Source: Parcubacteria group bacterium
Lineage (GTDB): Bacteria > Patescibacteriota > Minisyncoccia > Moranbacterales > GCA-2747515
Assembly: GCA_041660065.1 (NCBI GenBank)
Contig: JBAZXC010000006.1
Span: forward strand, 4,984 to 68,983
Direction of reading: 5' to 3'
DNA: 64,000 nucleotides
Positions within the stretch are counted from its first letter, which is position 1. The number at the start of each line of letters is the position of its first letter. The translations under genes were made by a program, and so were the position numbers. Under the pieces are notes generated by a model. The model did not search any database and was not told the origin of the DNA. It worked only from the letters and a program-made list of their open reading frames with translations. Positions 231 through 50,106 of the stretch are shown here, piece by piece.

Positions 231-462
231 AAACTTCCCTCGGTATTATCCTAACATGTGACAGGTTATGTCACAATAGGACTCCACCGATATAAGTCGA
301 TTTCTCATATATGATCGCTCATATACGCCGCCGTGTATGATGTCTTTTTCCTCGGGTTCAAACTGTACAAAAGTCAAAAGTTCATAATATTATAAAGTCC
401 ATAAAAAGTTTGGCATTCCAAAAATTTATAAACTTTAAAACTTTCTACTTTATAACTACTGT
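1..462 (-). mobile_element. Group I-type intron (partial, continues past window start) interrupting the 23S rRNA at the site homologous to E. coli 2593, which is also the I-CreI homing site
   Basis: In rRNA sense the sequence reads GAGCTGGGTTCAAACCGT up to the base at + position 463. It then departs from the universally conserved CGTGAGACAGTTCGGTCCC tract (ACAGTAGTTATAAAG...). The inserted stretch contains an I-CreI-like ORF. Exact splice junctions and the P1-P10 core are not resolved by eye. Confidence 0.6.
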
Positions 463-509
463 ACGGTTTGAACCCAGCTCGCGTACCACTTTAAACGGCG
501 AACAGCCGT

Positions 510-567
<58 letters not shown>

Positions 568-598
568 ACTCCGTCGATGTGAACTCTTGGGAGTGATA

Positions 599-629
<31 letters not shown>

Positions 630-789
630 ATGATCTTCCACACTCCTACAAGTGATGGTCGGTTCACTAACTTCTACTTTCGTAACTGAGCGACTTGCTT
701 GTCTTTCAGTAAAGCTGGTTTATGCGTTTGCACTATCGGCCCGATGTCCATCCGGACCTAACCAACCTTTGTAAACGCCTCCGTTACAT

Positions 790-821
<32 letters not shown>

Positions 822-1331
822 ACCAGGCACTGTTCCTGCACCGGTAGCTATATTCAACACGAGTAGTAAATTTAGTAGTACTTTTTAATCATCAGACGAG
901 TCTTATAAAATAAAATTTTATAAGCAGTTAGTGAATTCTTTTAAGTGAAAATTTTCCACGTCAAAGATCCCTCCGTACAAAACATTCTAAAAAACGCTTT
1001 GTTTTACGAAGGGCTTCACTACTCGCCTGTTGATCATATGTACCTTTGAATTTACACTCTGTAAAATACACCTAACGGTGCAAGGTTAGAATCAAAACTT
1101 CAGCAGGGTGGTATTCCACTGTTGACTCCACCGCTCCCTAAAGAGCAGCTTCAAAGTCTCCCACCTATTCTCGGCAACTAAAACTCTAATTCAATGCCAA
1201 GCTGTAGTAAAGCTCCACGGGGTCTTTTCGTCTAGCTGTAGGTAGGGGGCATCTTTACCCCCATTGCAATTTCACCGAGCACCTGGTTGAGACAGTTCCC
1301 ATCTCGTTACACCTTTCATGCGGGTCGGAAT

Positions 1332-1363
<32 letters not shown>

Positions 1364-2809
1364 GATTATAGTTATCGCCGACGTTCACTGGCGCTTCGGG
1401 GATCCGCGTAAACTTCTCCCGTTAACGTTCCAGCACTGGTCAGGTGTCACCCCCTATACATCCTCTTACGAGTTAGCAGAGAGTTGTGTTTTTGGTAAAC
1501 AGTCGAATGGGCACTTTAGCTTCGTCCAGCACCTATTTCAAAAATGATCGTCAAAATTTTTAACATTCATGAGCGATAGCGACTGCATCTTTTATCACTA
1601 TCAAATCTCTATGATCATCTCTAAAATAGGTGCTGGAAAGACATTTAGCGAACGTACGTCTAGCTTTTTTGCCGAGTTCCTTAACCAGGTCTCACTCATT
1701 CATCTTAGGCTACTCGCCCTATCTACCTGTGTCGGTTTACGGTACGGGTGTGTATATATTGAAGCTTAGAAGCTTTTCCTGGTACCCTGCTCACTACTAT
1801 TAATTCCTCCGAAGAGAAACGACTGTCCATATCTCGGATTATTGTATGGCGGATTTGCCTACCATACATCCTCAATACGTCCACATCAATCCAATAAGAT
1901 GCAGTAGCTACAAGAATACGTCACTCCATCGCATATATACACAGTGCAGGAATATTAACCTGCTGTCCATCGACTACGCCTTTCAGCCTCGCCTTAGGAC
2001 CGACTAACCCTGGGATGATTGCCATTGCCCAGGAAACCTTAGATTTTCGATGTGCACGGATCTCACGTGCATTGCGGTTACTCATTCCAGCATTCTCACT
2101 TCCTTGCGTTCCACCGGTGGTCACCCATCCGGCTTCGGCACACAAGGAACGCTCTCCTACCACTTGTAGATAAATCTACAAATCCGCATCTTCGGTATTA
2201 TACTTGAGCCCCGTTACATTTTCGGCGCAAGATCTCTAAACTAGTGAGCTATTACGCTTTCTTTAAAGGATGGCTGCTTCTAAGCCAACCTCCTAGGTGT
2301 CTGAGAAATCTCACTTCCTTTTCCACTGAGTATAAATTTTGGGACCTTAGATTGCGATCTGGGCTTTTTCCCTTTTGAACTACGAGCTTAGCCCCGTAGT
2401 TCTGACTGCCGCTGTACGATCATGAGCATTCGGAGTTTGGTTGAGCGCCCTACCTTGCGGCGGGAACTCATTCAGTAGCTCTACCTCCCATGATTAATTA
2501 AAGCGACGCTAGCCCTAAAGCTATTTCGGAGAGAACCAGCTATTGCCGAGCTCGATTGGAATTTCTCCTCTACGCACAAGTCATCCCCTGATGTTGCACA
2601 GTCAGTGGGTTCGGGCCTCCCACAACTTTTACATTGTGTTCACCCTGCTCATGCGTAGCTCGCCCGGTTTCGGGTCTAGTTCCTATGACATATTCGCCTG
2701 TTACAGCTCGCTTTCACTATGCATCGGTTACAGAGTAACTTATGCAAGCCATAGAAAACTAACTCGCTGGATCGTTCTACAAAAAGCACGCAGTCACCCC
2801 TCACCCAAA

Positions 2810-3070
2810 TTACTCTAAACTTTCTTTGACATGTTTTATCAATTGATATTTTGCCTTACCATTATGCTTCAAACGATATTCTCTCGTCCGTGCGGCACTG
2901 AGCGTTATCCACGACTCATAATAAACAATTTTCCAATGATGTGATTTTGTTGATCTGTTTTGACCACTGTTATGTGAATCAAAACGCTTTTTCAAATCAC
3001 TTGTACATCCGACGTAGAAAACTTCTCTATCATCAGTTGCTTGCAAAGCATAAACATAATGCATACGCAT
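2810..3070 (-). CDS. GIY-YIG domain protein, YhbQ/UPF0213-like, 86 aa, encoded inside the 23S helix-25 IVS
   Basis: MRMHYVYALQATDDREVFYVGCTSDLKKRFDSHNSGQNRSTKSHHWKIVYYESWITLSAARTREYRLKHNGKAKYQLIKH. GIY (YVYAL), YIG (FYVGCT) and R..EHN.G motifs are present, with a C-terminal REY..K block like YhbQ/YazA. Same strand as the rRNA. Confidence 0.65.
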   Translation of the reverse strand: MRMHYVYALQATDDREVFYVGCTSDLKKRFDSHNSGQNRSTKSHHWKIVYYESWITLSAARTREYRLKHNGKAKYQLIKHVKESLE

Positions 3071-3089
3071 ATATTTATACAGTTAAAAT
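2812..3089 (-). other. Intervening sequence (IVS) inserted in the loop of 23S helix 25 and closed by a 15-bp extended helix. Almost its whole length is an ORF.
   Basis: In rRNA sense ...GGAGCCCCTCACCCAAATT is the revcomp of 3090..3104. A 278-nt insert follows. AATTTGGGTGAGGGGTGACTGCGT (revcomp of 2797..2811 onward) then resumes the conserved GUGACUGCG of helix 25. The two arms are perfectly complementary. Too short for a group I intron; the position matches the classic RNase III-excised IVS site of Salmonella/Leptospira. Confidence 0.6.
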
Positions 3090-3159
3090 AATTTGGGTGA
3101 GGGGCTCCTACTCTTTGTTAGCGTATAGTTTCAGTTCTATTTCACCTCCCTCTACGGGA

Positions 3160-3201
<42 letters not shown>

Positions 3202-4110
3202 TGAGACAATATTTAGTCTTGGAAGTTAGTGCTCCCGGATTCAGACGGGGTTTCTCCGGCCCCGCCCTACTTGAGAATAAACTCACCTATTATTTTTTCT
3301 TTTCGTGTACAGGACTTTTACCTTTTATAGTCACACTTTCCAGAGTATTCCACTAAGAAAAAATTATTGGCCCCGCTCTAAGCGAGTCCGCTCATCTCGC
3401 AACCCCGTTCCTAATAAAAGAAACGGTTTAGACTGTTCCGCTTTCGCTCGCCACTACTGACGGAATCTCATATTGATTTATATTCCTCCTGGTACTAAGA
3501 TGTTTCAATTCCCAGGGTTTGCTTTCATAACCTATGAATTCAGTTATGAATTTCCACTTGCGTGGAAGGATTGCTCCATTCGGACATCTCCGGTTCACAG
3601 CTTGTTTGGTAGCTCCCCGAAGCTTTTCGCACCCAACTACGTCCTTCATCGCTCGTCTCAGCCAAGGCATCCACTATACGCCCTTTGTAACCTCTTTCTT
3701 TTATTTCATCAAAATCTATAAAGAATTGACAATTAAGAGAAACTTAACTGCAATTTTTATATCATTCAACAAAATTTAATGAGTGTATTGTTCATTTGAT
3801 CTTTTGGGTCAAATGAAATTGCTTAACCTATTTGTTGCTTTCTTCTGATATGACCACACATGTGTTCCGCAACAAATATGCGCGTCATTCAAAAATTTAT
3901 ATGCAGTTGTGAAAGTTCACACGTGCCTTGCCGTAGCTCACAAAAGCGACAGTAGGTTCTGCGGAAACAAGTAAATCTCTTTCACCATGTTTCCGCACAA
4001 CATTCTTTCATGTTTCAAACAAACAAAAAACGAGACATGTGCCTATATGTATTCTCGCTTGCGTCGCTCTTTCTCCGGCCGCACTTGACGTCCTCAGAGC
4101 AGTACTACCT

Positions 4111-4138
4111 ACTATAGCAAAGCCGAAAAATTTGTCAA
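4111..4138 (-). promoter_or_regulatory. Candidate sigma70-type promoter for the 23S rRNA transcript
   Basis: Minus strand reads TTGACA (4138..4133), a 16-nt spacer, then TATAGT (4116..4111). A second TTGACA lies ~22 nt further upstream. The 23S 5' end is ~410 nt downstream. Confidence 0.4.
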
Positions 4139-4296
4139 GTCTTCTTTATTTGTCAAACTGATGATATGCACAGGTTATTCACACTGTACCATTCAGTACA
4201 GTGCACGGCACTGTATTTGGTGCAATATAAGCACTGTGTTTTATTAGAAATTAGGGTGTGGAATGGTAGGTGGTAGACGTATGGATGGTAGGCTGT

Positions 4297-4345
4297 GGAA
4301 ATAAAAAACCAGTCATAGTATCCAACTATGACTGGGACGTTTTTT
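4297..4345 (-). terminator. Rho-independent terminator closing the pyrE-pyrF-small ORF transcript
   Basis: CCAGTCATAGT / ACTATGACTGG stem (4309..4336), followed on the minus strand by TTTTTTATTTCC. An A-tract/T-tract on both sides makes it bidirectional-looking. Confidence 0.6.
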
Positions 4346-4357
4346 CATTCAAAATAA

Positions 4358-4516
4358 CTATAGTTGTTCAACTGCATTTTGCAAATATTTTTTATATGCT
4401 TCGATGTGTACGCAATCATCATCTAAACATTGTTTACGTTTGCATCTCTTGCATTCTGCAGGCATTTCAACTTTCTTTGCACTGCTCTGATGCTGCTTTT
4501 TCTGACTTTGTACCAT
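4358..4516 (-). CDS. Small Lys- and Cys-rich protein, 52 aa, with C-x2-C-x4-C-x4-C; co-transcribed downstream of pyrF
   Basis: ATG at 4516 preceded by GGAGGTGG at a 5-nt spacing. Protein: MVQSQKKQHQSSAKKVEMPAECKRCKRKQCLDDDCVHIEAYKKYLQNAVEQL. The stop lies 21 nt before the terminator hairpin. The six-frame track gives a longer TTG-initiated version (4358..4543). Confidence 0.45.
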   Translation of the reverse strand: MVQSQKKQHQSSAKKVEMPAECKRCKRKQCLDDDCVHIEAYKKYLQNAVEQL

Positions 4517-4546
4517 GTACCACCTCCGATCTGAAAAAATCAAATT

Positions 4547-5458
4547 TTATGAAACTGTTTTTATAGCGCGTATTTGGTCACACAAAATTTGCGACTTTTT
4601 GCCAGATGCCTCTGCATAATCATCACCAGAGCTGGCAAAAATAATATCGGAGCTTGAATTGATCGCGATCGATCCGGGACCGGCATAAGCCGCTTTTATC
4701 GTTTCTTCCACAAAACCGCCTTGCGTACCAACACCGGGAATCAGAAACCACAGACCACTGCCAACGATCTGCCGACATTTCGACAAATGTTCGGAAAAAA
4801 TTTCTCCAGAACCTTTGAAGGTTTCGTATGCAGCTGCCATGACAAGTCCGGCATTTTCATTCACGCCGATCTCCCATGCCCACCGCAAAATCGTTTTGGC
4901 AATGAATTCCCAATATTGTCGCCCATCAGCAAGCAATACATCCTGGACTTCCCGCGCCTCTGGATTACTTGTGTAACAAAGTCCCACAATCGCTCGTCCC
5001 GGATGTGCAGGATCAAATAACGGCTTCATACAACTGCTACCCATATACGGCGAGAAATTCATCCCATCTACGCCATCGATCTCAAAGTGCGCAATACGAT
5101 AACGTTCTTGTGTTCTACCGATATCACCTCGTTTACAATCCAGGAAAACCGGAATATCGGGATAGAATTTGTGAATATAGCTCACGATTTTTTGGAGAGC
5201 TTTATCACCACCGCGAAATGCCTCATAATGCGCCTTCTGCAGTTTGAACATTGATGCGAATGGAGCGGTTGAATCTACAATATCAATCATCCACTGCGCG
5301 ATCGCCTTCCAGTCAGACGAAATCCAAAACTTCTTTCTGAGACAATGCGGCAACTTTTCTGGTAACGGATCCAGACCAACACATACAAGAGAGTTTATCT
5401 CCAATTGTCTCCTTGCAAGTTTTGCTCGAAATCCTTCTTCTTTTGCGCTTTCCACCAT
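4547..5458 (-). CDS. pyrF: Orotidine-5'-phosphate decarboxylase, long (type 2) form
   Basis: VCVGLDP, FLDCKRGDIG and LIPGVGTQGG motifs; 303 aa. Confidence 0.8.
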   Translation of the reverse strand: MVESAKEEGFRAKLARRQLEINSLVCVGLDPLPEKLPHCLRKKFWISSDWKAIAQWMIDIVDSTAPFASMFKLQKAHYEAFRGGDKALQKIVSYIHKFYPDIPVFLDCKRGDIGRTQERYRIAHFEIDGVDGMNFSPYMGSSCMKPLFDPAHPGRAIVGLCYTSNPEAREVQDVLLADGRQYWEFIAKTILRWAWEIGVNENAGLVMAAAYETFKGSGEIFSEHLSKCRQIVGSGLWFLIPGVGTQGGFVEETIKAAYAGPGSIAINSSSDIIFASSGDDYAEASGKKSQILCDQIRAIKTVS

Positions 5459-5482
5459 AACATCCTCCTTGTTTTTTTGACC

Positions 5483-6364
5483 TTATGGTCGTGACAGTTT
5501 TTCGTAGAGATCAGGATAAGTGTCCTGGATATCTGCAAGAAATTTTTTGCCGTGTCCGACACGCGTATCGATTGGGATGCCGTCCTTACACAGAGGACAC
5601 TGCTCTCTAGGATCTCGTGAAAGATCCATAGAGTAGTTTGTAGCCACAACATCCGTAAGTGCTTGTGCAAACTCAATGCAATATTCATCCTTGAGCGCCG
5701 TGAGTCCCGGATTTTTTTCACTGATCCGATTACACGCAGCGATAAAACCCACAAAATTACCAAATGATGAAATGATAAAGTCTGCTGTTTCACGCAAGCT
5801 TTTCGCTGAGTTGATCACGTCCTCGACCTGCATGGTACGCTTCCCTCTAATACGATCTCCATGATCCTTATACCACACCAATCCATTGTGAAATTTGAGG
5901 AGTGGTTTGAGAACTTCTATTGCCCGTCCATCGGTAAATTTTGTGTTATACCATGCAACGAAATTTGCCAGTGCATTCACATCATTTTGAAGTTTGAGTG
6001 GTTTGAGAACTTCAACAGCCCGTCCTCCGGTGAATTTTGTGTAATAATACGCGACAAGTGTTGCCAACGTATCCGCACCATGTGGTGTTCCTACGAAGGC
6101 ATCAATTTTCTCATCACGACATTCCCATGCCATCTGCATTGCTACAACACATAATTGTGCCACAGTTTTGAGATCACGAATATTTATATATGCATCTCCG
6201 TGACCCCCCCCTGAATAACCAAAGTGTCCCTTTAAGGCGACACCTTCATTTTCAAAGTATCCCCACACGCCGAGTTTTGCAATTGTATGCTCATACAATG
6301 CGAGATCAACAGCACCGTGCCGTGACAATACATCAAGATCAATTGGTGTAAAATGATCCATCAC
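5483..6364 (-). CDS. pyrE: Orotate phosphoribosyltransferase-like protein with an internal 33-aa tandem duplication
   Basis: GHFGYSGGGHGDAYINIRDL aligns to the PyrE GEFTLKSGRKSPYFFN block. IDAFVGTPHGADTLATLVA aligns to the PRTase loop. WYKDHGD...RTMQVEDVINSAKSLRETADFI aligns to NRKEAKDHGEG...[21 protein letters not shown]. Adjacent to pyrF. Confidence 0.6.
   Translation of the reverse strand: MMDHFTPIDLDVLSRHGAVDLALYEHTIAKLGVWGYFENEGVALKGHFGYSGGGHGDAYINIRDLKTVAQLCVVAMQMAWECRDEKIDAFVGTPHGADTLATLVAYYYTKFTGGRAVEVLKPLKLQNDVNALANFVAWYNTKFTDGRAIEVLKPLLKFHNGLVWYKDHGDRIRGKRTMQVEDVINSAKSLRETADFIISSFGNFVGFIAACNRISEKNPGLTALKDEYCIEFAQALTDVVATNYSMDLSRDPREQCPLCKDGIPIDTRVGHGKKFLADIQDTYPDLYEKLSRP
5889..6083. 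repeat. Diverged in-frame tandem duplication (99 nt + 96 nt) inside pyrE
   Basis: Copy 1 TGAAATTTGAGGAGTGGTTTGAGAACTTC... against copy 2 TGAAGTTTGAGTGGTTTGAGAACTTC.... At protein level YYTKFTGGRAVEVLKPLKLQ.. / YNTKFTDGRAIEVLKPLLKF... About 70-75% nt identity, so not a trivial assembly artefact. Confidence 0.7.
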
Positions 6365-6635
6365 TTCCTCCCATACGCCTTGCGCACCATTGCGCTGTTC
6401 CTTTTGATTGAAAACGAACTACTACCAAACCCAATTAACCATTCTACACAAGTCTCACAATTTTGGCTACAACTGCGAAAAAATACTCAACCATATCTCG
6501 ATATGCTTCCATATTTTTTCTGTGTTTTGCTCAAAATTGAGAAACTTGTTATTGTAGAAGCGTTAATTGGATTTGGTATAAAAACCTGCACTCATGCTAT
6601 CAAGTGCAGGTAAAAAGTCAATCACGTATCTTTTA

Positions 6636-6672
6636 TACACCCAAAAACCTCATGCAATCCCAACATGAGGTT
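6636..6672 (-). terminator. Rho-independent terminator downstream of the large surface-protein gene
   Basis: AACCTCATG-CAATCCCAA-CATGAGGTT hairpin, followed on the minus strand by TTTTGGGTGT. Confidence 0.55.
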
Positions 6673-6691
6673 TTTATTTCCGTAAAAAGTT

Positions 6692-9580
6692 CTATGGTCG
6701 CGTCTCGATCATACGTCCATCACTTCCGATGTCCGTGTCATCATTTACCGTTGTCGTTGTGTCTGGCACACTTTCTTTTATTGCACTGCAAATTGTATTT
6801 GTTCCGCCGTAGAGGCCTTCACATTCCCAGTTCCATCTACCATCTGATGCGTTTTGATCGGTCCAAATCACGTTACCTGTATCACAGAGATTTGATGATG
6901 GTTGAATAAAATATGTTTGACCGTCAGCCAGCCCGCACTCACCATTGCTTGCAGGTGGCATTGTGTATTCGCATTTTTGTGTATCTGTGCACGCTGTGAC
7001 TTGTTGCCATGGCGTATTTACTATGAGACCTCCGTCATCGCCCAGGCACCATGTTGCGCCTTGCGGCGGGTTACCGCCTGTGCAGGAGTATGCCGGCATT
7101 GTGTATTCGCATTTTTGTGTATCTGTACATACTGCGACTTGTTGCCATGCGGTATTTGTCGTGATATTTATATCGTCTCCCATACACCATATTGCACCTT
7201 GTGGCGGAGTACCTGTGCATGTGTATGATGGCGCAAGACGTGCTGCAGAACACGTTGCATTCGTACCACCGCCAGATCCGTTACATGTCCACGTCACCGT
7301 ACTATCTACACCATATGCACCTGATGGAAAACTCACTGTTGCCGGAGATGGTGTGCCAGCAGAGCAAAGAGGTGTGGATGGACCGGTTGCAGTATATACA
7401 TAATTATTTCGTGTTGAAGCAGAATTACATACTCCATTAATTGGAACAACACAAGAACCGACCGTAATATCCCAATAAAGAGTTGTGCCTCCGAGACTCA
7501 TTGTTGTGAAACTTGGGTTAGTATATTGCGTGTTTCCTCCTCCACAACCTATATGCTCATCCGTGGGAGAAACCCAGTAAGTAGAGTTGCTAGCGGTACA
7601 TCGATTCTGACCCAAGATGCTTCCGCCACATGACAACTTGGGTGTTCTAAACTCCTCGCATCTCGGTTTGTAATACGCGATAAGAGACCAAATACGCACG
7701 GTTGAACCATTAAGTTTCGCTGTAATTCTGGCCGTTCCAGATGCTCCGGCTACAGCAGCGCAGGTCATTCCCGAACATGTCATTACACTGGGGTTATTTG
7801 AAACTAAGCTAGGATTACCGGGCTGACTACCGGTAAAGTAAATATACCCACCCCGAGCACCATTACCACTGATATATTGACCGACGGCGGGAAGATTATT
7901 GCCGAAACAGCTTGCCGAAGTATAGTTACTGCATAGTGTTCCATACGGAGTGTCCCAAGATCCTCCACTAGCGTTAAATGTCAAATCAGAACCATAGCCA
8001 AAGCTTACTGAACCGCCACAAGGAACACTCGTACTAGTTACATTCATATAGCTATTCAAAGTGACATCGCCGGTAGAGATCGTGGCATAACCATTAGATA
8101 GATTATAGGGACTTGAAGACAACGCAGTTTGATCCCCCGCTGCCGAAGTCCCGTGACTCGACAATACTCCTCCAGTAACCAATAACCCGAAGATAAATAT
8201 ACCTAGTCTCGGCCCTCGATATCCTTTGATGATTCTGATCAACACGATTATGATAATAATAGTTACAATAAAGAGCACAACATAAGCGAAAATCTTCACA
8301 AAACCATTCATTCCCACCAGTCCGCTCACGTCTACTGTCTTGCATTCGTTGAGTTGGGCGCAATCATACGTTATTTCATAATGGTCAACGACATTCCCGT
8401 CCTTATCTCTAATCTCTGCTTTCAGTCCAACATAGTCATAATCCCGACGGGCAGAGATATCCGTCTTAGCGGCTGACATAGCGGAAGGAATATTGCCATC
8501 ATATTTTAATTCCCCGATCTCATTACCATCCCTATCCGACAACACAGCTCGGACGTTCCCACTCGTATTGACGTTAGTGGAATTGTGAAAACAGGAGAAA
8601 AGAGTGAAGGCGTCGCCTTTTTTGATCGGGAATTTAGTGATAGCAGGATAGTTGAGCCGCGCACGTGGCGCATCTGTTGCGAAACGAACATTGATAATGG
8701 ATTTCGTATCGTCATAGCTGGCAATTGTCTTCAGATAATATACACTGCCGGAAGTATCTGGCACTTTATATGAGATATCAGCCGTGCCGTTGGCCGGAAC
8801 AGTGACCGTCAAAGTCTTCTCGTCCAAACGGTCATCTTTGTTGAGACTGTCCCATCGGTAGAGCTCCTGAGTGACATTGACGACTTTTGTCTCACCAAAA
8901 GAATTGCGCAATACATTATTGATAGTAACTTCCGAGCCAGCGGTGATTTTTGGCCAACTGCCGATCTGGTTATATTTATCTCCATTGAAAGTCGTAGCCG
9001 ACTTATCGAAGGCAACAGCAGTGGTGATTGTCGAGCTTATATTAAAACGTGCCACACCGGCAGTTACTTCGTTGGAAAAAGACAACCCACCCAGATTGAA
9101 TTTCTTGCCAACTGAGAAGAAATAATCAACAACGTATGCTCCATTGCCTTCGTAAACCGGAACGTTCCAGATAAAATCGACTTTTTTCTCACTCTTTGCA
9201 TCAATGGAAATGTCTTTTACGGCAATGAACTCATCTACGATATTTTGACCCTCTTGCATGTAATTATCATTCGCTCTTCCGATCCGAACAAAAAGATTAC
9301 CGTCTACAACAGGATAATTATTGTCATTCTTGACCATTCCGACAAAATGCATCTCCGTCCCAGGCTGATAGACCTGCTGATCCGGTCCGACACTGACTAT
9401 AACAGATTGGAACTTGTAATAATCAAAACAATCCACATCATTCGCCGTTGCACCAACTGCCGGCCAATCAGAACCTTCTATTGTGTCTTTCGCAATTTCT
9501 TCATCAGACACCTGTGCAAAAACAAAAAAACCTGGCACAAAAATAAGCGAAAGGATTATTCCAAAAATGATCTTCTTCAT
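6692..9580 (-). CDS. Large (962 aa) secreted/cell-surface protein: signal peptide, N-terminal domain, two central TM helices, Cys/Gly/Thr-rich C-terminal domain with tandem repeats
   Basis: MKKIIFGIILSLIFVPGFFVFAQ signal. TM helices FVKIFAYVVLFIVTIIIIIVLIRII and LGIFIFGLLVTGGVLSS lie mid-protein. The C-terminal half has many Cys and a duplicated WQQV.ACTDTQKCEYTMP module. Confidence 0.6.
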   Translation of the reverse strand: MKKIIFGIILSLIFVPGFFVFAQVSDEEIAKDTIEGSDWPAVGATANDVDCFDYYKFQSVIVSVGPDQQVYQPGTEMHFVGMVKNDNNYPVVDGNLFVRIGRANDNYMQEGQNIVDEFIAVKDISIDAKSEKKVDFIWNVPVYEGNGAYVVDYFFSVGKKFNLGGLSFSNEVTAGVARFNISSTITTAVAFDKSATTFNGDKYNQIGSWPKITAGSEVTINNVLRNSFGETKVVNVTQELYRWDSLNKDDRLDEKTLTVTVPANGTADISYKVPDTSGSVYYLKTIASYDDTKSIINVRFATDAPRARLNYPAITKFPIKKGDAFTLFSCFHNSTNVNTSGNVRAVLSDRDGNEIGELKYDGNIPSAMSAAKTDISARRDYDYVGLKAEIRDKDGNVVDHYEITYDCAQLNECKTVDVSGLVGMNGFVKIFAYVVLFIVTIIIIIVLIRIIKGYRGPRLGIFIFGLLVTGGVLSSHGTSAAGDQTALSSSPYNLSNGYATISTGDVTLNSYMNVTSTSVPCGGSVSFGYGSDLTFNASGGSWDTPYGTLCSNYTSASCFGNNLPAVGQYISGNGARGGYIYFTGSQPGNPSLVSNNPSVMTCSGMTCAAVAGASGTARITAKLNGSTVRIWSLIAYYKPRCEEFRTPKLSCGGSILGQNRCTASNSTYWVSPTDEHIGCGGGNTQYTNPSFTTMSLGGTTLYWDITVGSCVVPINGVCNSASTRNNYVYTATGPSTPLCSAGTPSPATVSFPSGAYGVDSTVTWTCNGSGGGTNATCSAARLAPSYTCTGTPPQGAIWCMGDDINITTNTAWQQVAVCTDTQKCEYTMPAYSCTGGNPPQGATWCLGDDGGLIVNTPWQQVTACTDTQKCEYTMPPASNGECGLADGQTYFIQPSSNLCDTGNVIWTDQNASDGRWNWECEGLYGGTNTICSAIKESVPDTTTTVNDDTDIGSDGRMIETRP
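6959..7234. repeat. Two tandem 138-nt (46-aa) repeats inside the surface-protein gene
   Basis: CATTGTGTATTCGCATTTTTGTGTATCTGT(G/A)CA... begins at 6959 and again at 7097. The protein module C(L/M)GDD...WQQV.(A/V)CTDTQKCEYTMP occurs twice. Confidence 0.7.
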
Positions 9581-25699: not shown

Positions 25700-25733
25700 T
25701 ACCTTATTATTAATAATATTTTTTTAAAAAACC

Positions 25734-26216
25734 TCACATTGATTTATCCATAGCATCATAAAGGGTTTTCAATTCTACAAATTTTTCCTGATACTTCACG
25801 AGAGCACCTTTCATTTCTGCAAGTTCTTCCTCTTGCCTCGCTATATCTTCCTGCAACATCTCAATACGACCCTGACGCTCCTGAATTTCCCTCAACATCC
25901 CTTCCTTCTGTCCCGCATTCTTCTGATCAACGGTCATATTTTCCTGTCGTTCAAAATGCGCATCATAAGGACCCCGCAGTTCATCTGATAATAAATGACC
26001 ACTTTTGTTTTTGCCCAGAATCTTATCCATCACTGGTCGTTGACTATCCTCTTTACGTCTTATTTCCTCAGCCAGCGCATTCGCAATTTCTGTTTCCCTG
26101 ATCGCACTTTTTCTCACAAACCCACCCTCTGGCAAATCAGCATACTTCTCTTTTTCTTCTCCCGGCAGATCTTTCACCGATTTATATTTTGGATCATACG
26201 GATCGAAATTTTCCAT
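25734..26216 (-). CDS. Hypothetical coiled-coil protein
   Basis: 160 aa, rich in E/K/R/Q heptad-like sequence (EIQERQGRIEMLQEDIARQEEELAEMKGALVKYQEKFVELK). Confidence 0.4.
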   Translation of the reverse strand: MENFDPYDPKYKSVKDLPGEEKEKYADLPEGGFVRKSAIRETEIANALAEEIRRKEDSQRPVMDKILGKNKSGHLLSDELRGPYDAHFERQENMTVDQKNAGQKEGMLREIQERQGRIEMLQEDIARQEEELAEMKGALVKYQEKFVELKTLYDAMDKSM

Positions 26217-26372
26217 AGCCTTAGCCTTAAATTATTTATTACTGTAAGTATAGATCACTTTTGGATCGCTTACAATTGTTTCATTTTGCACAAAATATCA
26301 TATGCACAACAAAAAAGGAGCGAATTATACTAAATTCGCTCCCAAAGACTCCATTTGCATTTTGATCATGTG

Positions 26373-26642
26373 TCATGGGCTCCACTCTTGTCCGGCTCCA
26401 ATGATCGCCCACAGCATAAAGGGCGGAACGATAAGGACAAGGAACGCCACATCGAATACTCTTTGCCACAGCAATGCACCTACAAAAAACAACCACCCGA
26501 TAACCACCGCAACCGCAAAAACAAGCAACATGCCAAACAGCACATTCATGATCATCGTTTTGATCTTTTTCTTCTCATCGCCATACGCGTGTGCCATATG
26601 TTCCCCCTTTAAAAAGTTTTTAAAAAACTTGTCTGACATCAA
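26373..26642 (-). CDS. Small membrane protein (2 TM)
   Basis: MLLVFAVAVVIGWLFFVGALLW and VAFLVLIVPPFMLWAIIGA segments. The start may be the downstream MAHAYGD. Confidence 0.4.
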   Translation of the reverse strand: MMSDKFFKNFLKGEHMAHAYGDEKKKIKTMIMNVLFGMLLVFAVAVVIGWLFFVGALLWQRVFDVAFLVLIVPPFMLWAIIGAGQEWSP

Positions 26643-26676
26643 ATAGATAGATTATGCCGTACACAACTATGCAACA

Positions 26677-26775
26677 AACTTTTGTCATTCTGAACTTGTT
26701 TCAGAATCTCAAAATTATGACTTATATAGATACTGAAACAAGTTCAGCATGACATAAATATTAAATGAGCTCCGT
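26677..26775. repeat. About 100-nt palindromic repeat element, copy A (two hairpins in inverted orientation plus a conserved tail AATATT.AATGAGCTCCG)
   Basis: About 89% identical to 46197..46296 over ~98 nt. Arms are TGTCAT(T/C)CTGAACTTGTTTCAG(A/G)ATC and GAT(A/G)CTGAAACAAGTTCAGCATGACA. T->C and A->G differences between the copies preserve pairing. Confidence 0.7.
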
Positions 26776-27270
26776 ATCATATATTTTAACATCCATCGCA
26801 TAGCGCTTCAAAAAACGCAGGAAATCTTTTGTAGAAATTTTGAGTGATGCCGTGTTGCGAAACGGATGGAAATGCACAGACGCATAATCAAAAATTTCTT
26901 TATCCACCACAACACCCACTTCTCCGGCGTTTTCATGAATGAGACCAAACGGCGTCACGGACCCCGGCGTAAGTCCGAGATTATTTTCCAAGCGATCCGC
27001 TGATGCAAAACCCATCTTGCGATGCTCGCCCAAGAATTCCGCCAGATGCGGGATATCGATATTTTTTTGCGCACACAATATGACGAGATAATGCTTGCGT
27101 CCGCGACGATTTTGCATAAAAGCATTTTTGCAATCCACCCCCATATCATGATCGCGATAAAAACTCCCCGACGCCTCCACCGTCCCAAAAGCCGGATGTT
27201 CGAATTTTTCATAAGGAATATTCATTTCATCCAATATTTTATATAATTTTTGTTCGTATAGATCTGCCAT
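26761..27270 (-). CDS. YbaK/ProX-family aminoacyl-tRNA deacylase (prolyl-tRNA editing domain protein)
   Basis: MADLYEQKLYKILDEMNIPYEKFEHPAFGTVEASG...HYLVIL...LGLTPGSVTPFGL. The track ORF extends 40 codons upstream through two REP hairpins (EQVVKPAPA duplicated), so the start is taken at the internal Met. The last 4 codons overlap the palindromic repeat element. Confidence 0.55.
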   Translation of the reverse strand: MADLYEQKLYKILDEMNIPYEKFEHPAFGTVEASGSFYRDHDMGVDCKNAFMQNRRGRKHYLVILCAQKNIDIPHLAEFLGEHRKMGFASADRLENNLGLTPGSVTPFGLIHENAGEVGVVVDKEIFDYASVHFHPFRNTASLKISTKDFLRFLKRYAMDVKIYDTELI

Positions 27271-27307
27271 GCATTTTTTTAAAAATTCAAAACTTTTACC
27301 TACCGCA

Positions 27308-27373
27308 GGAGCAGGTTTTATAACCTGCTCCAACCTTTTCCACTTTGCAGGAGCAGGTTTTACAACCTGCTCC
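27308..27373. repeat. Two REP hairpins (27308..27331 and 27350..27373), GGAGCAGGTTTT(A/T)(T/C)AACCTGCTCC, immediately 3' of the RAYT gene
   Basis: 10-bp perfect GC-rich stems with 4-nt loops. The same unit recurs at 27967, 28020 and 28742. Confidence 0.75.
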
Positions 27374-27379
27374 GAACTT

Positions 27380-27877
27380 TTATAGCTCATCCACTTTCAG
27401 TTCACATAACTCATTCGCCGAAGACCAATACCAATCTTCCGGCTTCATCACATAATTCTTTCTGACAGGATTATTATGCATATATGTTAACTTATTTTGG
27501 AAAAAAGATTCCAATCCTATACATTTCGGCATATTGGTTTTTTGCCAAAACTCATAATTTCCTTTCTGGTCTAAAAATAACTTCAGAACCGTCGGTTCGT
27601 TTTTAATAAGATTTTTTCTAAATTCTCCGGATGTAAATCGCTTGAAATCGCGTACAAAACCGGACACATCCGGTGACTGAACGATCACGTGAATATGATT
27701 GAGTATAAAAACAAAACCGTATAATTTTAATCCTTTATGTTCTCGACAATATGCGAGAGAATCAGCCAAAATATGCCACCGATGATGACGGTCGAAAAGA
27801 TAATACCATCTTGCAACAGTCATGGTTAAAAAATATATATCTTGATTGAAATCTTTTGATATACGTACTGATGGCAT
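27380..27877 (-). CDS. REP-associated tyrosine transposase (RAYT; IS200/IS605-like Y1 HUH transposase, TnpA_REP)
   Basis: YFLTMTVARWYYLF N-terminus, HUH motif LNHIHVIVQ, catalytic Tyr region NYEFWQK...LTYMHNNPVRKNYVMKPEDWYWSS (Y.H.NPV...PEDW.WSS signature); 165 aa; flanked on both sides by REP hairpins. Confidence 0.75.
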   Translation of the reverse strand: MPSVRISKDFNQDIYFLTMTVARWYYLFDRHHRWHILADSLAYCREHKGLKLYGFVFILNHIHVIVQSPDVSGFVRDFKRFTSGEFRKNLIKNEPTVLKLFLDQKGNYEFWQKTNMPKCIGLESFFQNKLTYMHNNPVRKNYVMKPEDWYWSSANELCELKVDEL

Positions 27878-27966
27878 GAGCCTATTTTAACACAATCACA
27901 AAAACACAAAAGAGGGTTTTTCTATTGGCGGTTTGTTACCTGTGACGGAATATTCACAATTTTGCA

Positions 27967-28043
27967 GGAGCATAGTTGTACTATGCTCCGTAATGTTTAT
28001 TATGTGAGATAAAATGAAAGGAGCAGGTTATAAAACCTGCTCC
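27967..28043. repeat. Two REP hairpins 5' of the RAYT gene: a variant GGAGCATAGTTGTACTATGCTCC (27967..27989) and GGAGCAGGTTATAAAACCTGCTCC (28020..28043)
   Basis: Same architecture as the 3' REPs. The variant copy has compensatory stem changes (CATAG/CTATG). Confidence 0.7.
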
Positions 28044-28049
28044 TGCGAG

Positions 28050-28090
28050 ATAAATTTAAAACCAGACCTCACACGCGTGCGAGATCTGGT
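28050..28090 (-). terminator. Rho-independent terminator for gene 28099..28599
   Basis: CCAGACCTC-ACACGCGTGC-GAGATCTGG hairpin, followed on the minus strand by TTTTAAATTTAT. Confidence 0.5.
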
Positions 28091-28599: not shown

Positions 28600-28741
28600 T
28601 GGATGTAACCTCCTCTTTTTATTGAAAAAATCAACTATATTAAATAACTCCATATGAATTGATACAACCGTCCATTGTACACCTAAATCGTCATTTTGTC
28701 AATATTTCTGCAACATTATTCAATAGTAAAAAAAGCTCGCA

Positions 28742-28765
28742 GGAGCAGGTTTTACAACCTGCTCC
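28742..28765. repeat. REP hairpin (fifth copy), GGAGCAGGTTTTACAACCTGCTCC, with a conserved 3' tail
   Basis: The ~55-nt block GCAGGAGCAGGTTTTACAACCTGCTCCGAACTTTT.ATA.CTCATCCACTTTCA is nearly identical to 27347..27400. Confidence 0.75.
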
Positions 28766-28822
28766 GAACTTTTCATAACTCATCCACTTTCAATTCTCTA
28801 CTCCCCAACTCCTACCCTTATA

Positions 28823-33310: not shown

Positions 33311-33502
33311 AGCAGTTTTATACAAACAATATTATCACCAAAAAAAACTGTGACTTGTACTCATGGTCAATGTACCGTCATTGCAATCCGCCTTGTGTGA
33401 AGAAAAATCTACCTACCGTTAGACAGGAAATCTTTTTGCAATATGCACCATTAGCCCCCTGTCATTCCCATGAAAACGGGAATCTATTTTCTCGTTTATG
33501 TG

Positions 33503-46109: not shown

Positions 46110-46196
46110 ATATGTGATTGATTTAAAAATTACTCTCCAAAAAATTATTTAATATAAATGTCATTTTTCTCCTATATAAGCAATTATTGAAAGTAA

Positions 46197-46296
46197 ATTT
46201 TTGTCATCCTGAACTTGTTTCAGGATCTCACGTGTATGACTTATATAGATGCTGAAACAAGTTCAGCATGACACGAATATTGAATGAGCTCCGATG
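46197..46296. repeat. About 100-nt palindromic repeat element, copy B
   Basis: See copy A (26677..26775). In this copy both hairpins are perfect (ATCCTGAA-CTTGT-TTCAGGAT and ATGCTGAA-ACAAG-TTCAGCAT). Confidence 0.7.
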
Positions 46297-49952: not shown

Positions 49953-50106
49953 TATATTCCCTCCATTTTAATAGCCCAATTCTAATTTTTTATTTTATTT
50001 TCAAAAGACAAAAATGAATTTATTTCAGATAACTCACTCTTATGCAAAGTACTTTCCTTTCCTCAATCACTTCTTTATGAATTATACACACAAACCCCAA
50101 ATACAC

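Follow-up and report, generated by a model that had tools for sequence, protein, structure and literature searches.

An inverted pair of CGTC-tagged REP hairpins at the core of a probable small mobile repeat in a Parcubacteria group genome

What kind of element is a short palindromic repeat that occurs twice, each time just behind a gene, in the genome of a Parcubacteria group bacterium? The question arises from a stretch of 64,000 nucleotides of contig JBAZXC010000006.1 (assembly GCA_041660065.1), here called the window, in which an initial annotation had described two copies of a supposedly novel element of about 100 nt and had suggested a miniature inverted-repeat transposable element (MITE), a small RNA or a terminator-promoter cassette. 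Our analysis indicates, with a probability that we put at roughly 0.8, that the element is a small non-coding, non-autonomous, REPIN- or MITE-like mobile repeat whose core is an inverted pair of repetitive extragenic palindromic (REP) hairpins of the CGTC-tagged type. The hairpin unit and its superfamily are already known; what is new is the host, a member of the candidate phyla radiation, and a clade-specific composite form, and the element does not constitute a new class.

We examined the extent and anatomy of the two copies. A repeat search of the window recovers a 99-nt repeat with 89% identity, copy A at 26676-26774 and copy B at 46195-46293, in agreement with what had been annotated. Pairwise alignment with 35-45 nt of flanking sequence per side shows that the similarity breaks off sharply at both edges, and the copies are thus not part of a larger duplication, in line with the initial annotation. 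Both lie after the stop codons of co-directional genes and have the same orientation relative to the minus-strand genes around them, as first reported. The nearest named relatives of the flanking proteins come from Candidatus Moranbacteria / Moraniibacteriota and from metagenome-assembled genomes labelled "Parcubacteria group", which places the host in the candidate phyla radiation (Patescibacteria). Each copy contains two hairpins with an 8-bp stem and a 5-nt loop, mutual reverse complements in inverted arrangement; the spacer between them measures 22 nt rather than the approximately 24 nt of the initial annotation. Reading the sequence of copy A, hairpin 1 is ATTCTGAA-CTTGT-TTCAGAAT (26687-26707) and hairpin 2 is ATACTGAA-ACAAG-TTCAGCAT (26730-26750); the hairpins of copy B occupy 46206-46226 and 46249-46269.

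Taken with a 4-nt tag and a 3-nt tail, the four hairpins follow the pattern TGTC-AT(N)CTGAA-CTTGT-TTCAG(N)AT-CTN. Copy A comprises a unit with its tag on the plus strand at 26683..26710 (TGTC / ATTCTGAA / CTTGT / TTCAGAAT / CTC) and one with its tag on the minus strand at 26727..26754 (TGTC / ATGCTGAA / CTTGT / TTCAGTAT / CTA, with one G.T pair). Likewise, copy B comprises a plus-strand unit at 46202..46229 (TGTC / ATCCTGAA / CTTGT / TTCAGGAT / CTC) and a minus-strand unit at 46246..46273 (TGTC / ATGCTGAA / CTTGT / TTCAGCAT / CTA). The tags of paired hairpins point outward, and it is stem pair 3 that distinguishes the two units of a pair. All four exact occurrences of the 15-mer core CTGAACTTGTTTCAG in the window are at the hairpins of copies A and B, and none of 100 dinucleotide shuffles of the window reached the observed number of core matches. 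One extra candidate, GAAATAAATTC at 50014-50028, has neither tag nor stem and was set aside as a chance match.

The differences between the copies had been described as paired at matching stem positions. For hairpin 1 this holds, the change from T-A in copy A to C-G in copy B being genuine; hairpin 2 has an A.C mismatch on the plus strand of copy A (G.T on the minus strand) where copy B has G-C. The predicted minimum-energy structure of each copy is one long imperfect hairpin of 27-30 bp, arm against arm, with energies of -33.8 and -35.9 kcal/mol (z = -6.9 and -6.6). Its two 1x1 mismatches coincide exactly with the covarying positions, which is the "heterodimer" state described for CGTC-tagged REPs (PMC3733652).

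That superfamily was defined by Di Nocera, De Gregorio & Rocco (2013, BMC Genomics 14:522; PMC3733652). Its units carry a terminal CGTC, often TGTC, with CCTC accepted, and a 3-nt tail fitting CCA; stems are 8-9 bp long and almost always open with complementary A/T in positions 1 and 2, and loops are 4-5 nt (PMC3733652). The units occur mainly as inverted ('HH') dimers with 20-100-bp spacers, often as heterodimers and sometimes inside longer palindromes; they are mostly intergenic, downstream of open reading frames (ORFs) in co-directional or convergent spacers, and have no dedicated transposase (PMC3733652). The window element fits this description closely. All four hairpins bear the accepted variant TGTC; the stem ATNCTGAA/TTCAGNAT has 8 bp, opens with AT and has covarying pairs; the loop CTTGT has 5 nt. 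The doublet is an inverted heterodimer with a 22-nt spacer, taking the paper's 'head' as the tag end, the two doublets in 64 kb lie downstream of co-directional genes, and the window element likewise has no linked transposase. The tail is present as a 3-nt position but reads CTC or CTA instead of CCA. Sphingomonas and Novosphingobium, genera with CGTC families in PMC3733652, carry identical 22-mers that do have the CGTC tag and the CCA tail. By its geometry and its identity to these Sphingomonadales copies, rather than by the published consensus, the window hairpin would belong to the 8-bp/5-nt family CGTC-2. The claim of novelty cannot be upheld for the hairpin itself. In contrast to the published members, reported from Proteobacteria, Chlorobi, Bacteroidetes, Spirochaetes and Thermotogae and from no candidate phyla (PMC3733652), the window element has a host in the candidate phyla radiation, a clade-specific composite of about 154 nt with extra inverted flanks, and an empty site for comparison.

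Other members of the superfamily include Neisseria dRS3/NIME and Rickettsia RPE-4/RPE-6, assigned to CGTC-1 and CGTC-4 (PMC3733652). Rickettsia RPEs can, like copy A, contribute codons to genes; these elements differ from the window element in their stem and loop sequences, in forming large mosaic clusters in Neisseria and in inserting in frame within genes in Rickettsia. The window also contains a lone hairpin, TGTC-ATTCCC-ATGAAAAC-GGGAAT-CTA, at 33461-33486 between convergent ORFs, which has the ATTCCC-N8-GGGAAT form of dRS3 / CGTC-1; a second CGTC-type family may thus exist in this genome. A literature search for the core sequence string found no paper, and the later papers that cite PMC3733652 do so in their reference lists only.

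How widely is the hairpin distributed, and how is it maintained? With each species represented by one genome, a scan located the exact 22-mer CATNCTGAACTTGTTTCAGNAT in at least 120 genome stretches from a dozen or more named phyla. The matches listed include Sphingomonas, Novosphingobium, Sphingopyxis, many Bacteroidota, Treponema, Nitrospirota, Nitrospinota, Elusimicrobia, Ignavibacteria, Heliobacteriaceae, Melainabacteria, Gracilibacteria, Patescibacteria and one metagenome-assembled Nanoarchaeota bin. The same 22-mer pattern was found in 82 stretches of IMG/VR viral contigs. A plasmid collection gave short hairpin matches in plasmids of Sphingobium, Novosphingobium, Treponema and Sulfurovum together with AT-rich noise, none of them annotated, and an annotated phage collection gave no match to the element.

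Among 236 non-redundant instances of the 22-mer hairpin, the base before GTCAT is C in 53% (a CGTC tag) and T in 35% (a TGTC tag). The commonest single tail is CCA (63/236, mainly in high-GC hosts), although CTC, CTA and CTT together are more frequent. An inverted partner hairpin (for example GACCCTGAAACGAGTTCAGGGTGAC) accompanies 112 of the 236 at a median distance of 36 nt, with spacings that vary widely, up to 95 nt. The variable stem pair N-N' is Watson-Crick in 227 of 236 (GC 110, CG 86, TA 26, AT 5); A.C or C.A occurs five times and G.T never, so wobble tolerance at the RNA level is not favoured. Across loci the loop is CTTGT in 286 cases, TTTAT in 33 and CTCGT in 25. In a set of 78 distinct hairpin variants, pre-selected for at most one mismatch so that the percentage paired is fixed by construction, two-sided changes affect 4 of the 8 stem pairs, and the covariation score was reached by none of 500 shuffles. 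The evidence for covariation, weak on the two window copies, is thus strong in the wider family: the hairpin is maintained by compensatory change, strictly Watson-Crick, across hundreds of genomes.

The gene context points the same way as the superfamily description. With classes that depend on crude ORF calls, intergenic instances in the genome loci divide into 56 tandem, 28 convergent and 9 divergent spacers, against about 54, 16 and 22 expected from spacer lengths. This convergent enrichment and divergent depletion is the bias to gene 3' ends typical of REPs. Tandem arrays of doublets occur in some loci, in Ignavibacterium, Treponema and Melioribacteraceae (L026 1450-1700, L034 1-300 and L077 200-900); they repeat every 82, 98 and roughly 120-180 nt and resemble E. 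coli BIME-2 clusters.

Comparison of related genomes reveals that copy B belongs to a larger unit and that this unit was inserted. In two loci, L122 and L123, which encode a U32 peptidase 89% identical to that of the window, the site is without the element: the distance from the peptidase stop to the ferredoxin start is 49 nt, vs 203 nt in the window. The empty site reads ...catcgga|aagtaatttttaaatcaa... (the part after the junction beginning aagtaattttt), and the extra ~154 nt of copy B form a single block bounded by cGGA(G)...tGGA(G). The full composite element of copy B thus spans 46136..46289 on the minus strand, so that the annotated size of about 100 nt falls short for this copy. Two more distant relatives (L124 and L125) have unrelated 113-nt spacers with no hairpin. 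Because the site is empty in L122 and L123 and the element is missing from L124 and L125, we place its gain in the lineage of the window; a precise deletion from L122 and L123 is contradicted by the two distant relatives. Copy B is an insertion of the whole composite unit between the U32-peptidase gene and the ferredoxin gene. A further contig with an identical peptidase, from another sample (L121), stops inside the first hairpin, a typical repeat-caused assembly break.

In the composite unit a 5' flank (TCATTYAATATYNN) precedes the REP doublet; an AT-rich 3' extension follows, and the 5' flank returns in inverted orientation at the opposite end. In copy B the left inverted flank is TCATTCAATATTCGTGTCAT (46268..46287, minus strand) and the right one TTATTTAATATAAATGTCAT (46145..46164, plus strand), an inverted 18/20 match to the left-flank pattern. 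The CGGA directly 5' of the insert (46290..46293, minus strand) is present in the empty site too and is repeated as TGGA at 46136-46139; the two may represent a 3-4-bp target duplication or a target preference. The same composite lies downstream of ybaK in four relatives (L126-L129) and in a groundwater contig (L135), with full-length homology of copy B to L126 and L135; in L126 the flanks form a 12/12 inverted repeat. Full-length matches to a composite profile come only from copy B, L126-L129 and L135, and other phyla match the doublet core only. A metagenome scan with a spacer-plus-hairpin pattern returned no matches; a second metagenome pattern returned four loci, of which L135 alone is a full homologue. 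The loop of the second hairpin in L126 (7590-7609), and likewise in L127-L129, holds a 20-nt insertion, ACTTGCCTACTGGCAGGCAG, itself a small palindrome and a nested event in the REP loop.

Copy A is a shorter form of the same unit. When copy A is left out of the composite profile, the alignment covers no more than 26774-26670 (model positions 9-113 of 177), which identifies copy A as the 105-nt 5' part of the composite (26670..26774, minus strand): 5' flank and REP doublet, without the 3' extension and the 3' inverted flank. Homology in this copy stops at 26670. The 60 nt downstream of copy A were considered as a counterpart of copy B's 3' extension, for which the profile without copy A gives no support. 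The 5' flank of copy A, TCATTTAATATTTATGTCAT (26749..26768, minus strand), provides the TAA stop and the last codons of a YbaK-like ORF with a tRNA_edit domain. The stop lies at 26761-26763, and copy A also includes the last three codons (E-L-I) and two bases of a Thr codon; the annotation was correct on the stop and slightly generous with its four codons. The protein ends ...YDTELI*, vs ...YDTYSMI*, ...YDACSMMQM* and ...YNTQV* in relatives. As a truncated unit at the gene's 3' end, copy A has taken the place of the last codons and the stop of the YbaK-like gene.

The region behind ybaK varies among relatives: L126-L129 have the related unit and L130 and L131 have no element. From ybaK to a LOR-like gene the window has about 1.06 kb (25700-26760), in which the element is accompanied by a membrane ORF of 89 aa and by an ORF of 160 aa that has no Pfam match; the corresponding spacer is 16 nt in L130, 195-243 nt in L126-L129 (element only) and 440 nt in L131 (membrane ORF only). 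Gene content has changed repeatedly between these two genes, which makes the region a hotspot. At the other end of ybaK, the deposited 209-aa YbaK-like protein (P0121) has a start 40 codons too early (window 27271-27390), the likely start being the ATG at 27270; homologues measure 162-187 aa, mostly 163-174. The N-terminal extension (…VVKPAPAKWKRLEQVIKPAPAV…) is a translation of two tandem REPs that belong to a neighbouring RAYT gene.

Could this neighbour be the mobilising enzyme? REPINs and GTAG REPs are reportedly mobilised by RAYT transposases, in work said to be that of Nunvar 2010, Bertels & Rainey 2011 and Ton-Hoang 2012. The RAYT gene of the window (27380-27877, minus strand; NF047646, 84.2 bits vs a cut-off of 80) lies 0.6 kb from copy A, between hairpins of another kind that belong to it, (C)GGAGCAGGTT-GTAA-AACCTGCTCC-TGC. 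Downstream these hairpins stand twice in tandem (27305-27339 and 27347-27381), and upstream once in inverted orientation (28017-28051). A variant hairpin, CGGAGCATAGT-ACAA-CTATGCTCC, is found at ~27960-27990, and the final ~25 nt of the RAYT gene recur with its REP at 28739-28800. Together 27305-28051 and 28739-28800 look like a 'REPtron'. The window element resembles REPINs in being an inverted REP doublet that folds as one long imperfect hairpin, in being dispersed, non-autonomous and intergenic, and in sharing the window with a RAYT; it differs from the GTAG systems in that its tag is TGTC and its doublets do not flank the RAYT. The ybaK-bearing relatives L126-L131 have no RAYT at the corresponding position, and a tblastn search with the window RAYT found no homologue in 1.7 Mb of other hairpin-bearing loci. 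The bases CGGAGC stand directly before both doublets on the gene-sense strand and are also the six bases with which the RAYT REP stem opens. CGGA was already present in the L122 empty site of copy B, and copy A is preceded by it too. The sharing may reflect a target preference or a coincidence, two copies being too few to decide.

When 3571 ORFs located up to 3 kb from hairpins were clustered without bias, no recurrent recombinase emerged. The recurrent clusters come almost wholly from high-GC viral-contig loci, and to judge from their translations the recognisable ones look like portal, capsid and protease phage proteins. Pairs of hairpins 1.7-3.8 kb apart were considered as the ends of an autonomous element and rejected, since on reading they bracket ordinary genes: a 1115-aa protein, a 757-aa metabolic-enzyme-like ORF (possibly methylmalonyl-CoA mutase) and phage-tail-like genes. 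In one Treponema metagenome-assembled genome (L021 3586-7009) two copies of the hairpin lie just outside both ends of the 1115-aa gene (3624-6971), with tags inward and no transposase. A HUH/Y1 enzyme is a tentative candidate for the mobilisation of the window element, and a DDE enzyme acting on the inverted flanks a slightly more tentative one.

How secure, then, is the reading as a REP-type mobile repeat? Several observations weigh against it. The 64 kb of the window hold just two doublets, which leaves a multi-copy family in this genome a presumption. The assignment to CGTC-2 depends on geometry and Sphingomonadales identity and not on direct comparison with the consensus. The exact ends are ambiguous, the candidate duplication being 3-4 bp (GGA or GGAG) in copy B and 7 bp (TTATTAG) in L135, and copy A has no candidate at all. 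The inverted flanks are subterminal on one side, and no transposase can be linked to the element, the RAYT near copy A having different hairpins. Finally, the element could have a role at the RNA level.

The first alternative to be weighed against these points takes the ~154-nt unit for a classical MITE, the derivative of a DDE-type insertion sequence (IS), moved by cut-and-paste through its 20-nt flanks with a short duplication and carrying the REP doublet as cargo or as a secondary insertion. The initial suggestion of a MITE-like element with terminal inverted repeats came close to the mark, as we do find a repeated hairpin-forming element with real compensatory variation. Like bacterial MITEs such as Correia elements, the composite is about 150 nt long, non-coding and next to genes, with inverted flanks and a possible short target duplication. 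The flank matches of 18/20 in copy B and 12/12 in L126, the direct repeats that bound the inserts (cGGA(G)/tGGA(G) for copy B, where the empty site has a single copy, and TTATTAG at either side for L135) and the insertion as a discrete block all agree with such an origin. The duplication lengths nevertheless disagree, the sequence around the 7-mer is AT-rich, and the flanks stand at unequal distances from their junctions, 7-8 nt on the right and 1-2 nt on the left. No parent IS is known, and none of full length with such ends was seen in the window or in any fetched locus. Moreover, the flank ends in the REP tag TGTCAT, which makes it look more like a prolonged REP than like an end in its own right; a REP doublet forms the core, and CGTC dimers inside longer palindromes have already been described (PMC3733652). 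We regard a classical MITE as improbable.

Under a second alternative the element would be a structured RNA under selection at the RNA level, whether as a small RNA or as a cis-regulatory element in the 5' or 3' untranslated region (UTR) of the flanking minus-strand genes. This would account for the shared orientation of the copies between co-directional genes, for the very stable predicted fold and for the fact that the sole non-Watson-Crick pair of copy A is a G.U on the transcribed minus strand. Two copies share an orientation by chance in 50% of cases, however, and the wider data speak against this reading: covariation follows strict Watson-Crick pairing, with no G.T and five A.C/C.A pairs in 236 instances, conservation of spacer and flanks is confined to one clade, the flanking genes are unrelated across loci and of every arrangement, and a close relative does without the element at this position. 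The Rfam scan of the whole window at the gathering threshold found only large-subunit rRNA and one tRNA, with no match in the element; at E up to 10 the two copies matched only generic miRNA hairpin models, with scores of about a third of the respective thresholds. Scans for a sigma-70-like promoter (-35/-10 hexamers spaced by 16-18 nt) and for a GC-rich hairpin that runs into a T-run found nothing inside either copy; on the sense strand, ACAAAA comes after the hairpin. The proposed terminator-promoter cassette is thus unsupported. A structured RNA is accordingly very unlikely, and the element is probably not a dedicated RNA gene. That each 21-bp palindrome binds a dimeric protein and that the pair is an operator for the downstream genes is less plausible again. 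Two near-identical palindromes with centres 43 bp apart, about four helical turns, would suit such an arrangement; the same palindrome, though, stands beside unrelated genes in a dozen or more phyla, favours convergent and avoids promoter-rich divergent spacers, varies widely in partner spacing and is absent from the site of a close relative, and the partner retains the asymmetric loop in inverted form, a feature that an operator would not be expected to show. As for chance or a segmental duplication, only the low-complexity, AT-rich context could be cited in favour; with 89% identity over 99 nt within sharp edges, 0/100 shuffles and homologous units in other organisms, its likelihood is negligible.

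On the reading as a REP-type mobile repeat, the unit would be copied as DNA, as other REP and REPIN elements are, most likely by way of single-stranded hairpins or cruciforms that an enzyme encoded outside the element recognises in trans. When transcribed within minus-strand operons it would fold into the long imperfect hairpin of -34 to -36 kcal/mol and would probably act only as a passive 3'-UTR or intercistronic stem-loop that protects the mRNA 3' end or decouples the downstream gene. In E. coli, REP hairpins in 3' UTRs protect the upstream mRNA from 3' exonucleases and can lower the expression of downstream or closely preceding cistrons; by analogy, at most a passive effect of this kind is to be expected here. 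E. coli bacterial interspersed mosaic elements (BIMEs) are of the GTAG class, bind IHF, gyrase and Pol I and are known only from enterobacteria; like the window doublets they are inverted REP pairs in 3' UTRs and intercistronic spacers, and their passive effects as mRNA hairpins are likely similar.

The window also contains a 23S rRNA match at 401-3697, which at 3297 nt vs the 2925-nt model implies insertion(s) of about 370 nt. Such insertions in rRNA genes are often seen in candidate phyla. The same Rfam gathering scan reported no 5S or 16S rRNA in the window.

What does the element mean for its host and for the superfamily? Locally, it explains the assembly break of the related contig and the remodelled C-terminus of the YbaK-like deacylase, and together with the neighbouring RAYT REPs it explains the spurious 40-aa N-terminal extension of the deposited protein. 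Genomes of the candidate phyla radiation are typically about 1 Mb in size and have very few recombinases. It is doubtful, though worth stating, that CGTC-type REP doublets are currently mobile in this lineage and offer a minimal system for finding the enzyme of the superfamily. A concrete version would have the RAYT near copy A also act on the doublets and insert them 3' of CGGA, much as IS200/IS605 enzymes choose positions 3' of a fixed tetranucleotide; a broader one would have the exact conservation of the 22-nt hairpin in a dozen or more bacterial phyla, a DPANN archaeal bin and viral contigs reflect recognition by a universal factor; both versions share the same slim odds. Three points have some value in themselves: the pair of insertion and empty site, the broad exact conservation of the hairpin, viral contigs included, and the juxtaposition with a RAYT. 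Together our data extend the CGTC REP superfamily to bacteria of the candidate phyla radiation and, with the caveats of binning, to many phyla beyond the original five and to viral contigs. The pair of filled and empty sites argues that 'orphan' CGTC REPs still move, a useful though modest contribution to the question of how they are mobilised.

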